Below, one piece after another: positions 1 to 14,802 of a DNA stretch of 47,725 nt (within the stretch, counting starts at the first letter, position 1; each line of letters starts with the position of its first letter). Both the position numbers and the translations under genes were made by a program. This stretch comes from a virus (Duplodnaviria > Caudoviricetes). The notes beneath the pieces were generated by a model that was not told the origin of the DNA, did no database searches, and saw only the letters and a program-made list of their open reading frames with translations. The DNA lies in the IMG/VR virus record IMGVR_UViG_3300022741_000070, positions 1 to 47,725 of that record. The stretch is one strand, 5' to 3'.

Positions 1-1386
1 ATGACCCGCGCGCTGATCTACACCCGGATCTCCCAGGACCAGTCCGGCGAGGGCGCTGGCGTGGCGCGCCAGGAGGAGGCGTGCCGCCAGCTCGCGGCAT
101 CGCGAGGCTGGACGGTCGTCGGCGTCGAGTCCGACAACTCGATCTCTGCCTACACCGGCAAGGAGCGCCCCGGCTTCGAGCGCGCGCTCGCCGCGGTGCA
201 GGCTGGCGAGGCTGACGTCCTGGTCGCGTGGGCCATCGACCGGCTCACGCGCTCCATCCGGGACCTCCTGCGCATGATCGACCTGGGCGTGCAGGTGACC
301 ACCGCCAACGGCGAGGTGGACCTGACGACGGCGACGGGGCGCATGGTGGCAACGATCATCGCGGCCGTGGCGGCTGCCGAGGTGGAGCAGAAGGCCGCGC
401 GGCAGGTGCTGGCGAACCGCCAGAAGGCGCTAGCCGGCGGCAGGACGAAGGGCGTGCGCCCGTTCGGCTACGAGGACGACGGCGTGACCGTCAGGGAGGG
501 GGAGGCTGCCGCGATCCGCGAGGCGGCGAGAGATGTGCTCGACGGTGCGACCCTGAGCAGCGTTGCTCGGGCGTGGCGTGAGCGCGGATTCCGCCCGGCG
601 CAGCGGCGGGGCGGGGAGCAGACGGACTGGTCCGTCGGCGGGGTGAAGTACGTGCTGCGCTCCCCGCGATACATCGGGAAGCGCGTCTATCGGGGTGAGA
701 TCGTTGGCGACGCGGCATGGGGGCCGATCCTCGACGTCGACACCTTCGAGCGCCTGCGGCGCAAGCTCGACGACCCCGCGCGCCTGGTCCAGCCTGGGCG
801 CAAGCGCGGCGGCCTGCGGCCGGAGAACCTGCTCTCGTCGTTCGCGACGTGCGGCGCCTGCGGTGGGCGCGTGCGTGCAGACAGCCGCGGTCGGAAGCCG
901 CGCGTCCCGACGTACACCTGTCGAGCCGGGAAGTGCTTCACGGTGGACAGGGCCGACGCTGACGCGATGGTCGCCGCCGAGGTGATCGCATGGGCCAGCC
1001 AGCCAGGCGCTGCGAGCCTGCTCCCTGGCGAGGCGGACAGCGAGGAGCGGGCGCGCCTGGTTGACGAGCTGCGCGAGCTCGAGGCCGCGAAGGGTGCGCT
1101 CGGCCCGGCGCTGGGCCGGCGCGAGATCTCCCTCGCGATCGCGGCGGCCGCGGAGCAGGAGTACGACGCGCGGATCGCCGAGCTCGGCGCTGAGCTCGGG
1201 GCGATGGAGCGCGGGTCTGCGCTCTCCGGCCTGTCGACGGCGGAGAGCGCGACGGCGTGGTGGGCCGGGCTGACGCCGGCGCGACAGCGCCAGGTGGTCG
1301 AGAGTCTCATGCGGGTGCGATTCCTGCCGCGACCGGCCGGGGTGCGCGGCTTCGACGAGTCGCTCGTCGAGATCGAGCCGGTCTAG
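1..1386 (+). CDS. int: Large serine integrase (resolvase catalytic domain + recombinase + Zn-ribbon/coiled coil)
   Basis: N-terminal YTRIS catalytic serine motif, DRLTR motif, RPFGY, CGACG...YTC Zn ribbon; 461 aa. Confidence 0.95.
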   Translation: MTRALIYTRISQDQSGEGAGVARQEEACRQLAASRGWTVVGVESDNSISAYTGKERPGFERALAAVQAGEADVLVAWAIDRLTRSIRDLLRMIDLGVQVTTANGEVDLTTATGRMVATIIAAVAAAEVEQKAARQVLANRQKALAGGRTKGVRPFGYEDDGVTVREGEAAAIREAARDVLDGATLSSVARAWRERGFRPAQRRGGEQTDWSVGGVKYVLRSPRYIGKRVYRGEIVGDAAWGPILDVDTFERLRRKLDDPARLVQPGRKRGGLRPENLLSSFATCGACGGRVRADSRGRKPRVPTYTCRAGKCFTVDRADADAMVAAEVIAWASQPGAASLLPGEADSEERARLVDELRELEAAKGALGPALGRREISLAIAAAAEQEYDARIAELGAELGAMERGSALSGLSTAESATAWWAGLTPARQRQVVESLMRVRFLPRPAGVRGFDESLVEIEPV

Positions 1387-6904: not shown

Positions 6905-7771
6905 TCAGTCCTCCCTCTCGGTAGTCAGGTTCGTGCTCCACGATGCGACCGTCACGCGCCCGAACTTGCGCAGCGCCTTGTACTGGTCCGTCCACAACCG
7001 CCGCGTTGCGTCGTCCACTCCCCATAGCTTCCGTCGGCGGTTCACCTCGGCCATGAGGGTGTCGAGAGTCCCCGTCCAGCAGCCCACAACGAGGACGTGC
7101 CCGTCCGCGTCCTCCGTGCGTGCGAGCGTCGCGGTGACACCTTCGGACCCGATCGGGCCGATCGAGATCCAATGCGCCCGCGACTCCACCCGCGCCTCGC
7201 CGGACACCTGCGCGTTGCCGTACACCTGCGCCTCGCCGGACACCTGCGCGTTGCCGTACACCCACGCGTTGCCGTACACCCGCGCGTTGCCGGACACCCA
7301 CGCGTTGCCGTACACCTGCGCCTCGCCGGACACCCACGCGTTGCCGTACACCCGCGCGTTGCCGGACACCTGCGCGTTGCCGTACACCCACGCGTTGCCG
7401 TACACCCGCGCGTTGCCGGACACCCACGCGTTGCCGTACACCTGCGCCTCGCCGGACACCCACGCGTTGCCGTACACCCGCGCGTTGCCGGACACCCACG
7501 CGTTGCCGTACACCTGCGCCTCGCCGGACACCTGCGCGTTGCCGGACACCTGCGCGTTGCCGGACACCTGCGCGTTGCCGTACACCCACGCGTTGCCGTA
7601 CACCCGCGCGTTGCCGTCGCGCAGGGTCAGGCTCTCGACCCAACCGCCCAGGTCGCCCGCCTTGACCCCCGCGCTCGGAATGTCCACGAGCGCACGGATC
7701 CGATGGACCGTCACACCCTGCGCGTTGACCTTCGACTCTCCGGTCAACTCGATCTTGATGTCCATGCTCAC
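6905..7771 (-). CDS. Hexapeptide-repeat (left-handed beta-helix) protein
   Basis: RIRAL..GDLGGWVE N-terminus followed by 24 (Y/S)G(N/E)A(R/W/Q)V units. Confidence 0.85.
   Translation of the reverse strand: MSMDIKIELTGESKVNAQGVTVHRIRALVDIPSAGVKAGDLGGWVESLTLRDGNARVYGNAWVYGNAQVSGNAQVSGNAQVSGEAQVYGNAWVSGNARVYGNAWVSGEAQVYGNAWVSGNARVYGNAWVYGNAQVSGNARVYGNAWVSGEAQVYGNAWVSGNARVYGNAWVYGNAQVSGEAQVYGNAQVSGEARVESRAHWISIGPIGSEGVTATLARTEDADGHVLVVGCWTGTLDTLMAEVNRRRKLWGVDDATRRLWTDQYKALRKFGRVTVASWSTNLTTERED
7187..7618 (-). repeat. Coding tandem array of 24 x 18-bp units
   Basis: Near-identical 18-mers such as GCCGTACACCCACGCGTT and GCCGGACACCTGCGCGTT on the + strand. Confidence 0.9.
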
Positions 7772-11179: not shown

Positions 11180-11202
11180 GCTGTGTCTCCCATCTCTCTC
11201 GG

Positions 11203-11263
11203 CAGGCTCGTCAGGTCCGGGATGCCAGCCCGGACGACGCCCCTTGTGGGGGCGTTTCGCCTA
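11203..11263 (-). ncRNA. Type II hammerhead ribozyme
   Basis: TAGGC GAAA C GCCCC-CACAA-GGGGC GTC^ GTCCGGG-CTGGCAT-CCCGGAC CTGACGA GCCTG; intact CUGANGA/GAAA/NUH core and all three stems paired. Confidence 0.9.
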
Positions 11264-12277: not shown

Positions 12278-12324
12278 GGCGCGCCGCGGGATCGAACCGC
12301 GCTCGCCCCCGACCGGGGCGCGCC
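12278..12324 (-). ncRNA. Mini-tRNA-like element C
   Basis: GGCGCGC CCC-GGTC-GGG GGCGAG CGCGG-TTCGATC-CCGCG GCGCGCC (7+5 bp). Confidence 0.75.
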
Positions 12325-12345: not shown

Positions 12346-12855
12346 TCACACCTCGCGACGGCTGACCAGCGCCGAGTGCCCGACGACGAGCGCGATGGCG
12401 TCCTGCCCGAACTCGTCGGCGAGGATCGCGAGCGCGTCGGCGAGACCCTCCAGGTCCCACTCCGCCGAGTCGCCGAACGCGAACACGTAGGCCGAGTCCT
12501 CGCGGACCGTCACGCCCGCATCGTCGACCCACTCGCCCGAGCCGTAGTGCGGCTCGTCGACATGCGTGCCGTCGCCCGTGAGCGCGCCCACGAGCCCGTG
12601 CACGAGCCCGACGAGACGACGCCACCGCCGCTCCGGCATCGGCTCGTCGCCCACGTTCCGGCCGATGTTGACCTGCACCGTCGCGGCCGTCGTCGGCGCG
12701 ACGTTGGTCGGCACGGGCGGACGGGTGAGCGTCGCGGCCGAGATCCGCAAGTAGGCGATGCGCTCCGACTGCGCGAGCGTGTCCCACGCGGCACCGTCCG
12801 CGTACGCCATGTGCCGCGCGTTCGCCACGACGTCCGCGCCCGTGATGTTGTCCAT
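12346..12855 (-). CDS. Hypothetical protein, possible SAM lyase (SAMase)-like fold
   Basis: G.GEW....G..VREDS and LA.EFGQDAI motifs resemble T3-type SAM lyases. Confidence 0.5.
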   Translation of the reverse strand: MDNITGADVVANARHMAYADGAAWDTLAQSERIAYLRISAATLTRPPVPTNVAPTTAATVQVNIGRNVGDEPMPERRWRRLVGLVHGLVGALTGDGTHVDEPHYGSGEWVDDAGVTVREDSAYVFAFGDSAEWDLEGLADALAILADEFGQDAIALVVGHSALVSRREV

Positions 12856-12902
12856 GTTGTGCTTCCTTCCAACGGTCCCGATGCACGTTGCGTCGGGTGA
12901 GT

Positions 12903-12947
12903 GCCCGTGCGCGGATTCGAACCGCACCGTCGCCACCTAGGACGGGC
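12903..12947 (-). ncRNA. Mini-tRNA-like element D
   Basis: GCCCGT CC-TAGGT-GG CGACG GTGCGG-TTCGAAT-CCGCGC ACGGGC. Confidence 0.75.
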
Positions 12948-12954
12948 TGCCGGT

Positions 12955-13155
12955 TCACTGCCCGGCATAGACGTGAATGCCCTCGCGCCAATCCGCGACG
13001 CCATCGCGCCACACCTGCACAACGAGATGAGGCGTGGGGATCGGCTGGACGATGGCGCGCGCTTCCACCATTGCGCGCGCCCTGGCGAGCGCGGCCGCGC
13101 GGTCGACCGTCGCGATGACGACCCCGGTGTGGTCGGTAAGGGTGAAGATGTCCAT
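12955..13155 (-). CDS. Small hypothetical protein, first gene of the early arm
   Basis: GAAAGG RBS before ATG 13155. Confidence 0.7.
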   Translation of the reverse strand: MDIFTLTDHTGVVIATVDRAAALARARAMVEARAIVQPIPTPHLVVQVWRDGVADWREGIHVYAGQ

Positions 13156-13197
13156 TTTGCTACCTTTCACTTGTCCCAAGCGCTAGACACTGGGACG

Positions 13198-13852
13198 ATC
13201 CCCGTGCCAAGGATCGAACCGTCGCGCTCGCGCTGCTCCGATTCGCCGAACCATCCGCGAGCGCCGAACGCGCGGCCGTCACGCGCGCCTTCAAAGAATG
13301 CGCCGAATCCCATTTCTTGCTCCCGATTGCGTGTGGGTGAATGCTGACGAGTGGTCGCGCCCGGTTCCGAACCGTTGTCACCCGACCCGCGCATGGCTCG
13401 TCCGGCGGAATGCTTGGCTACAGATACCCGATGGCGACCATCGTTGCCAGTACCCTGCCAATTCCGCCGCGCCGCTGTGCGCGTGGCTAGTGAAGCGCGA
13501 CCTGACCGCATTGCAGCGGTCCGTGTGTGTGGGTAGGGACGGATCGCTAATCCGCGCGGCTCACCATGTTTGGGTGCCCTACGTGCCGCATTGAATCACT
13601 GGCATTTGCGCCGACGCGTCATGCGCTTATGCCTGCCGGGGGATGCTCACCGCCGGGTGATTCGGCGGGTCGTGGCATTGTGCTCACCCCTTGCTTGAAC
13701 CGCGCCGTTGCCGACGCGTCGTTTGGTGACGCGGATTTGCACCGCGGGGGTGACTTCCAGTGACCGCGGATTCCCATCCGCGGGTGTGTCTCGCCGAACC
13801 GGCGCCGCGTGCGAGCGGGCTCCCGATCCGGGTCGATCCGTCCAACCCGATG
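13198..13852 (-). ncRNA. Candidate ~650-nt structured noncoding RNA / leader
   Basis: No credible ORF; dense nested helices; T-loop-like GGTTCGATCC at the 3' end. Confidence 0.6.
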
Positions 13853-13857
13853 GCTAG

Positions 13858-13886
13858 AACCTATGCCGTGCCGCACGCTTGCGCTA
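13858..13886 (-). promoter_or_regulatory. Putative early leftward promoter TAGCGC-N17-TAGGTT
   Basis: Resembles the TTGCGC-N17-TAGGAT promoter at 9824-9852. Confidence 0.45.
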
Positions 13887-13957
13887 GTCGCGCCGCTGTA
13901 CTCACCCGCCGCCGAGCGCGTTTCCGCAGATCAACGGCCTAAAACGAGTTTCGCGAC

Positions 13958-13976
13958 CGTCTCACAATGTGAGACG
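13958..13976. promoter_or_regulatory. Palindrome CGTCTCACA-A-TGTGAGACG, putative protein-binding site
   Basis: Perfect 9-bp inverted repeat upstream of the early promoter. Confidence 0.45.
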
Positions 13977-14042
13977 CCCATGGGCGGTTTGCCCGGTTCC
14001 TCGCGCGCGCGTGCATGGCGCGCATGGCGCGCGTGACGCGCG

Positions 14043-14125
14043 CTGCCCTGCCCCTGCCCTGCCCCTGCCCTGCCCCTGCCCTGCCCCTGCCCCTGCCCCT
14101 GCCCCTGCCCTGCCCCTGTCCCTGC
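14043..14125. repeat. (TGCCC/TGCCCC)n microsatellite, G-tract array on the minus strand
   Basis: About 15 consecutive C3-C4 runs. Confidence 0.9.
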
Positions 14126-14157
14126 GGGTGAGGTTTGCGTTTCACCCGGCCTGGGCA

Positions 14158-14187
14158 TTGACGCGGCGGCGGTGGTGGGGGTATAAC
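14158..14187 (+). promoter_or_regulatory. Putative rightward promoter TTGACG-N18-TATAAC
   Basis: Near-consensus hexamers pointing toward the HNH/tRNA/terminase genes. Confidence 0.45.
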
Positions 14188-14597
14188 CCGCGCGCGTGTG
14201 ATTCGCGGACCGCTGCGTGTTGGCAGCTACGGTCGCGCCACCATCACAAGGTCAATCATCGGCGGCGGCGAGAGGTGCGTTGCTCGAGCTCGTCCATCGC
14301 TACAGCGCCCTGCGACTGTGCAGGTCACAGCGCATGTGGGGCCCATGAGGGCCCCCAGGTGCCGGGGCTTGCGGGCCCCGAAGGGGGCCCGGCAGAAGCA
14401 GGAGCTAGCGGCCAGCGTTCGCCACTGTTCTGGGTGTGACGCAGTTCACCCGCTGGAGATGAAGCAGGCTTGCCTCGTGCTGCGTAGATACAGAGTGTAG
14501 AGCTCTAGAACGTAGCGGCTGAGCCCCCGAAGGGGGCCCCAACCGTAGCGACTACTCCTAGGAGTAGAGCCCCCTTCGGGGGCCGCTTCCGCTGCGA

Positions 14598-14636
14598 CTA
14601 CGTCTAGGAGCTACGTCTAGGAGCTACGTCTAGGCG
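14598..14636 (+). repeat. 3 x 13-bp tandem repeat CTACGTCTAGG(A/C)G
   Basis: Read directly; lies in the presumed left-end noncoding region. Confidence 0.85.
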
Positions 14637-14802
14637 TAGCTCGCCGCCGCAGCACTCAGACCAATGACTCCTCCGGGTCGGCAGGGCCAACCGCCCTCAC
14701 GCCGCCGGAGCTTCTTCCACCGCGGGGCCCGGAGGCGACCACCCATGCTTCGAGCGCGTTACCAGGGCCCTGCGGTGGCCCCCTGCGCCCAGCCTGCCGA
14801 CG

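Follow-up and report, generated by a model that had tools for sequence, protein, structure and literature searches.

A probable structured leader RNA at the head of the early arm of a BD-like actinophage

What does the long non-coding head of an actinophage's leftward early arm hold: a structured RNA, a regulatory leader, or spacer DNA? We address this question in the window, the whole 47,725-nt stretch of DNA analyzed here, a 47.7-kb record that represents an entire temperate actinophage related to Streptomyces cluster BD. Its terminase is ~62% identical to those of Streptomyces cluster BD phages, and all 172 records matching its repressor are Streptomyces phages. To the left of the feature, a leftward arm of small genes extends up to 13155; on the other side lie an HNH gene and three tRNAs, followed by rightward structural, repressor, and replication genes. 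The feature is thus the non-coding head of the leftward early arm (Table 1). The non-coding stretch before the HNH gene carries a CTACGTCTAGG-type repeat three times and several hairpins (14600–14640), and the gene at 6905–7771(−), assigned to PHROG 5070/7964, contains ~30 copies of an 18-nt (6-aa) repeat at 7097–7725.

Table 1. Positions of the features described, in the window unless another record is named
Feature	Position	Strand	Details
Serine integrase	1–1386		
Intergenic acceptor+T-arm minihelix	8732–8778	−	38.1 bits, E 5.7e-6
Intergenic acceptor+T-arm minihelix	10921–10968	−	13.3 bits, E 1.8
Type II hammerhead ribozyme before a gene start	11197–11262	−	Rfam RF02276, 53 bits
Acceptor+T-arm minihelix before a gene start	12278–12324	−	15.3 bits, E 0.68
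Intergenic acceptor+T-arm minihelix, then ACTC	12903–12947	−	21.9 bits, E 0.023
First early gene, 66 aa, with GAAAGG ribosome-binding site	12955–13168	−	No PHROG match
3′ domain or 5′ UTR of first early gene	13170–13348	−	GCGCTCGCG/CGCGAGCGC stem, degenerate T-loop, two short hairpins
Core three-way junction, tRNA-like geometry	13349–13502	−	P1 GGTCGCGC/GCGCGACC, P2 TCACT/GGTGA, P4 CGGT-TCGGA-ACCG, trailer ACTC
Long inserted arm of core	13388–13483	−	CGCGCA/TGCGCG, CGGCGGAAT/ATTCCGCCG, TTGGC/GCCAA, CGATGG/CCATCG; absent from L089
GACCGC/GCGGTC hairpin	13504–13521	−	Directly 5′ of core
5′ domain, ~320 nt	13531–13848	−	Holds CCGCGGAT and GGCAT-GCGC stems; pair probabilities >0.8
Degenerate acceptor+T-arm minihelix, UGCAAAU loop	13724–13765	−	17.6 bits (model R1), E 0.21 genome-wide
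Predicted Pleft-type early promoter	13849–13886	−	TAGCGC 13886–13881, 17-nt spacer, TAGGTT 13863–13858, ATC
Upstream box CTGCGGAAACG..GCGGGTGA	13902–13929	−	Common to orthologue L089; candidate regulator site
Cluster A tRNA-like domain	L017:1136–1227 = L5 51,135–51,226	−	Also L166–L170, L172–L174
Kribbella-type ~105-nt three-way-junction domain	L020:2173–2279	−	
Kribbella-type domain	L201:7303–7408		
Kribbella-type domain	L203:6137–6261		
Kribbella-type domain	L207:12264–12369	−	

An initial annotation had read this region as a densely structured non-coding RNA of ~650 nt. All 12 of its motifs and motif pairs lie where it placed them on the minus strand, and its judgment that no credible ORF is present agrees with codon composition: seven ORFs of at least 60 aa (six inside the region, one partly overlapping it, with 13760–13942 and 13809–14036 on the plus strand, both touching the 5′ end, left out of the test) have GC3 values of 0.59–0.68, vs. 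0.85–0.97 in four neighboring or reference genes. None of the seven matches PHROGs at E 0.1. ARAGORN and Rfam report nothing within 13170–13852 (tRNA, tmRNA, Y RNA), and no Rfam family model of known self-cleaving ribozymes, group I/II introns, or riboswitches matches inside the feature; the sole Rfam match at E up to 10 in 12700–14200 is a chance 2dG-II match (16.6 bits) outside it. Likenesses to group II intron D5, a cobalamin riboswitch, and twister-sister were rejected, as Rfam shows none of them. By blastn, neither the region nor the leaders of L015, L025, L020, and L089 match any of 50,697 phage records. Exact-pattern scans of IMG/VR returned 10, 1, 11, and 4 loci, all in chance-like contexts except the self-match of the L015 record.

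The predicted early promoter lies where the initial annotation had put it, with a predicted +1 at 13851 (ATC). Its layout, compared by eye, is common to L089, L088, L015, L014, and phage L5; a strict sigma-70 consensus scan returned no promoter site. CTAGCGC occurs at the −35 element and again before the first gene (six copies in all), and a repressor operator search gave no clear stoperator word. Upstream of the promoter are GGGCA-type tandem repeats (14046–14125), which L088 and L014 also have and at which assemblies break. In A/BD-like phages, a Pleft-type leader is marked by ~500 nt of non-coding sequence that separates the first leftward gene from the early promoter, and the window has such a stretch. 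Position, the shared promoter layout, compensatory changes relative to L089, and a published RNA at the same position in L5, D29, and StarStuff together support the proposal that a large structured non-coding RNA or leader heads the early arm.

How structured the stretch is depends on the measure. The folding energy gave z −1.96, with 0 of 20 shuffles as stable, and z −2.37 in a second run (1/30). Perfect helices of at least 7 bp number 38, against 22.6 ± 5.1 in shuffles (2 of 300 reach 38); for helices of at least 6 bp, 53 of 300 shuffles reach the observed count. Coding 680-nt windows of the same phage range from z −3.1 to +1.5, and a single 150-nt window of the region stands out (13500–13351, z −3.5). 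The dense structure claimed at the outset therefore survives in part: the helices are present, but the folding energy is unremarkable and only modestly beyond chance.

These values invite the reading that the region is ordinary GC-rich spacer DNA near a genome end, with helices arising by chance. Three of 14 coding windows equal z −2.4, the searches above yielded neither an Rfam family nor a blastn match, and expression is uninformative: X6, the sole RNA run with the locus, has it as contigs at a depth of 35 (~5–68 in the other bins of 18 kb) and covers the phage evenly, showing neither enrichment nor absence of leader RNA (the locus is absent from runs X7 and X8). Against chance helices, all seven positional leaders that we tested are more stable than their own shuffles (z −2.4 to −5.0), and the comparison with L089 described below, at the expected place and orientation, found four double changes and no broken pair. 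We consider spacer DNA very unlikely.

The pairing ensemble divides the RNA into three domains: a 5′ domain, a core, and a 3′ domain reaching the ribosome-binding site. A perfect helix of 10 bp, GGACGGATCG (13843–13834) with CGATCCGTCC (13546–13537), together with GGGT/ACCC, closes the 5′ domain, a domain that the initial annotation had missed. Because these strands close the domain, the GTAGGG/CCCTAC multi-way junction proposed earlier is lost (pairing probability 0.00). The T-loop-like hairpin CGCGG-TGCAAAT-CCGCG scores as a degenerate minihelix, yet it competes with other pairings and has p = 0.07 in the ensemble. No homologue of the 5′ domain was found, and hence no covariation. The hairpin that L089 carries at the position of GACCGC/GCGGTC is unrelated to it. 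Both the window and L089 could form a CGCAUG/CAUGCG pseudoknot; in the window, CAUGCG also has a local partner.

The core can be read as an acceptor-like helix of 8 bp, then a D-like arm and a hairpin of 4 bp whose loop is UCGGA, then a single G before the closing strand and the trailer ACUC; its end lies ~503 nt from the predicted start. Folding of the window sequence on its own predicts P1, P2, and P4 at p > 0.8. A tRNA-like RNase P/Z substrate has a coaxial acceptor+T stack of ~12 bp and a single-stranded 3′ trailer; in the core, the acceptor-like and T-like helices, which covariation supports, would stack as 8+4 bp with one unpaired G and the ACUC trailer. The loop is non-canonical, without the canonical A58, the T-like stem has only 3–4 pairs, and a minihelix model found no full match to the core. 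The most conspicuous helix of the window, CGGCGGAAT with its neighbors, belongs to an insertion missing in L089.

Related loci were collected through a nearby PHROG 1221 gene, which we take to be DUF932-like. With nhmmer, one of 138 loci matches the leader: L089, weakly (E 0.54), in the expected place and orientation. It has the same promoter tail, the common upstream box, and a 620-nt leader. Local alignment of the two leaders gives z 5.0 (1 of 500 shuffles), and a 3′ block aligns without gaps at 39 of 57 positions. Over the 17 pairs of P1, P2, and P4, eight substitutions form four double changes and break no pair (P 1.3e-4 under random placement); P3, which is out of register between the two sequences, was kept outside the count. 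When a model based solely on L089 is run on the window, the best of its 55 matches is the 3′ half of the core (18.4 bits, rough E 0.021). The same model matches L088:10191–10236(−) weakly (17 bits, E 0.48), off the leader, on the other strand, and probably by chance. Three samples of 401 genomes each led to BD-like prophages, and none of the 10 regions examined there matches the window core.

The compensatory changes and the L089-model match argue for selected RNA structure over ~60 nt of the core, and the feature is very probably a selected RNA structure. Covariation, in the form of compensatory changes against a single homologue, covers ~60 of 680 nt; comparative support for the leader is confined to this part.

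The accessible text of PMC5712189 offers a functional parallel. Directly behind Pleft in L5, D29, and StarStuff, a ~500-nt RNA is described as the most abundant transcript, and the L5-type RNA as processed into at least four pieces; ~90% of L5 Pleft transcripts stop at the leader end, and the published 3′ end of the L5 RNA is 51,140–51,190 (PMC5712189). The L5 region was toxic when cloned, in a clone that included gene 89; deletions 51,195–51,619 and 51,195–51,407 could not be purified, whereas 51,407–51,619 could, and the same accessible text treats the RNA as apparently essential and suggests a role in lytic growth (PMC5712189). For D29, the accessible part of a 2025 preprint has a corresponding transcript peak and lowered VapC target genes upon infection (10.1101/2025.11.21.689395).

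In the nine cluster A phages that we viewed, the leader terminates in an acceptor+T-arm domain. Counted over eight phages, with Snape and Adzzy outside because of poor alignment, double changes affect 12 of its 19 pairs, and 96% of cells are paired (0 of 500 shuffles). The domain combines a GGGTAG/CTACCC acceptor, an expanded D arm, an invariant GGTTCGATTCC, and an ACT-type trailer. Rfam leaves it uncalled in L5, D29, and Timshel, and the stretches of Bxb1 and RGL3 examined have no module at the genome end. In L5, the published 3′ end falls inside this domain; the two non-viable deletions cut into it, and the viable one leaves it intact. The assignment is not unique, because those deletions also remove a conserved middle domain.

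At the sequence level, the leaders of L5, D29, L015, L020, L088, L025, and Aaronocolus have no significant similarity to the window leader; for five leaders other than L089, 31–244 of 500 shuffles score as well (L5 31/500, D29 244/500). Since L5 and D29 lack sequence homology to it, the window leader is best read as a positional and functional counterpart rather than a sequence homologue: by analogy, it is likely the counterpart of the abundant L5 leader RNA, the homology being positional only. Two resemblances seen by eye were discarded: that to L020 (GACGAGCCA..CAACGG..CGGAA) is equaled in 10 of 200 shuffles and is not conserved in L020's three relatives, and that to L015 (ACGGACCG..) is not significant in shuffle tests.

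Four Kribbella-type prophage leaders end in a 3′-terminal domain with the topology of the window core, followed by ACU or GCU. These domains share CGGGUG and have double changes in 3 of 27 pairs; the L020 domain is without an Rfam match. The model derived from the four does not detect the cluster A domain. It also misses the window core at E 2 and needs a cutoff as loose as E 1.2 to reach that of L089; common descent is therefore not demonstrated. A topology descriptor, devised post hoc, gave five matches in 202 records and none in reversed sequences, and missed L207. In 49.5 kb, the sole Kribbella-type model match is L018:3254–3324(−), in the Aaronocolus leader, ending in ACU (E 0.45). Two further leaders were observed: L088:345–1030(+), a different one of ~680 nt (z −3.5) with a near-perfect long inverted repeat and a canonical minihelix at its end, and L025:4160–5020(−), ~850 nt, non-coding and structured-looking, in a Streptomyces prophage, with no blastn match in the phage collection.

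Where would the RNA end? The initial annotation had it released at a degenerate tRNA-like 3′ GGTTCGATCC (13220–13211). This element is only a degenerate T-loop with no proper T-stem (E 2.7), and its 4.6 bits in the minihelix model do not support release there. The tRNA-shaped core ending near 13349 is the better candidate RNA end, which would give ~500 nt rather than 650 nt.

An end at this place could also reflect a purely cis-acting leader, whose domains attenuate or terminate most early transcription and so tune read-through into the early genes, with accumulated RNA as a by-product. The ~90% of L5 transcripts reported to end at the leader's end (accessible text of PMC5712189) fit such a leader, as do the 180 nt of further structure between the window core and the ribosome-binding site, and in L020, L201, and L203 (three of the four Kribbella-type leaders) a U-rich run comes after the closing helix of 8 bp. 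The window core, however, has no U-run, and a terminator scan found none; moreover, a phage that loses an attenuator would be expected to grow with increased early expression, whereas two L5 deletions were not purifiable in the account given there. We regard a purely cis-acting role as unlikely.

The early arm contains further candidate processing signals. Hammerheads self-cleave, and acceptor+T-arm minihelices are RNase P substrates. Four minihelices of ~45 nt and one hammerhead each lie shortly before a gene start in the window; the minihelix model was built without window sequences, and only two of the four fall below E 0.05. Aaronocolus has four such minihelices and phiELB20 four hammerheads in early gaps. 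The early intergenic gaps that contain minihelices in the window and Aaronocolus are equivalent to those that contain hammerheads in the window, L089, L015, and phiELB20. As hammerheads cleave themselves and minihelices are RNase P substrates, both are most simply read as cutting signals; their equivalent placement suggests that early mRNA is processed by RNA structure alone in these phages. Covariation of 15 minihelices is unusable as support, because a pairing descriptor picked them and the argument would be circular. Minihelices of ~40–50 nt also occur in early gaps of the actinophage records L018, L020, L088, L055, L081, L145, L067, L014, and L015, and type II hammerheads between early genes in L015 (6472–6537), L089 (2317–2379), and L177 (four copies). 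A literature search, with most subscription journals outside its reach, found no description of the tRNA-like domain in these leaders or of minihelix/hammerhead punctuation.

We therefore weigh a processing model in which a Pleft-type abundant leader RNA has its 3′ end set and protected by a tRNA-shaped core; as a whole, we give it an even chance. After repressor release, the promoter (13886–13851) would fire strongly. The RNA is predicted to fold into the 5′ domain (13848–13531) and the core (13502–13349), the latter backed by covariation and comprising the 8-bp acceptor-like helix, the D-like arm with its insertion, the T-like hairpin, and the ACUC trailer. Host nucleases of the RNase P/RNase Z type, or exonucleases halted at the stacked helix, may then liberate smaller pieces and a stable RNA ~500 nt long. 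In read-through transcripts, cleavage at the minihelices and the hammerhead before downstream genes would yield short, stable mRNAs. By analogy with the suggestion made for L5, lytic growth probably involves the released RNA.

A more specific role for the released core would be that of a trans-acting tRNA mimic, with an NCU end replacing CCA, that binds or distracts a putative host tRNA-handling factor (RNase P/Z, the CCA-adding enzyme, a tRNA-cutting toxin, or a defense nuclease) during takeover. We think this improbable. The toxicity of the cloned L5 region and the extreme abundance of its RNA (accessible text of PMC5712189) would accord with it, as would the conservation of a tRNA-like domain with an invariant T-loop in eight cluster A phages and the lowered VapC target genes upon D29 infection (accessible part of 10.1101/2025.11.21.689395). 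The T-loop of the window core nevertheless deviates from tRNA, there is no anticodon arm, and toxicity is known, from that L5 account, only for L5 and a clone containing gene 89. A broader conjecture, to which we assign a low probability, is that cluster A and BD-like leader RNAs form an unrecognized large phage RNA class with a tRNA-mimic domain and an NCU end; this domain would be the essential and toxic element of L5 and act in trans on host tRNA processing or tRNA-targeting defense, and the early operon would be cut by interchangeable minihelices and hammerheads.

Among known systems, GOLLD and ROOL were the comparison first proposed, and it fails: a covariance-model search against Rfam gave no match at E up to 10. 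The leader resembles them in being large (500–680 nt), phage-encoded, and near tRNA genes, three of which lie 1.4 kb away, and the accessible text of PMC12286853 places GOLLD and ROOL often close to tRNA islands. Those three genes, however, lie on the opposite strand, past a non-coding genome-end region; the leader is promoter-proximal in an operon, no universally conserved region was found, and sequence turnover between clades is near complete. GOLLD is recognized by a covariance-model match, a conserved 3′ region, and a length often >800 nt, and ROOL by a covariance-model match; the window leader shows none of these and is neither GOLLD nor ROOL. A similarly ornate RNA forming an RNA-only cage is, on the same evidence, extremely improbable.

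tRNA-like processing signals, such as RNase P minihelix substrates and the tRNA-like domain of tmRNA, resemble the core in that an acceptor-like helix is stacked on a T-like hairpin and the 3′ trailer is single-stranded. The trailer of the core is ACUC rather than NCCA, its loop is non-canonical, and ARAGORN and Rfam are silent. The Y RNA YrlA has a circularly permuted layout and a link to Ro60. It is likewise a tRNA mimic, reported from bacteria and mentioned with mycobacteriophages (PMC4201824), whereas the window has neither an Rfam match nor the permuted layout.

The nearest known system is the L5/D29/StarStuff leader. Its L5 module has a canonical GGTTCGATTCC T-arm and a 6-bp acceptor; the window instead has a UCGGA loop and a helix of 8 bp, and in addition an insertion of 95 nt and another domain of 180 nt. 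Only for L5 have expression and toxicity been shown. Shared by both are a leftward early arm with a non-coding head, the promoter layout as compared by eye, a hairpin with a T-loop close to the 5′ end, a trailer of the ACU type, and a similar distance from the start to the tRNA-shaped 3′ module (~503 nt in the window, ~537 nt in L5). The window extends the Pleft-type leader arrangement to BD-like phages. It also draws attention to an element that lends itself to testing, the tRNA-shaped 3′ module, which shows covariation in cluster A and is hit by precisely those L5 deletions that were non-viable.
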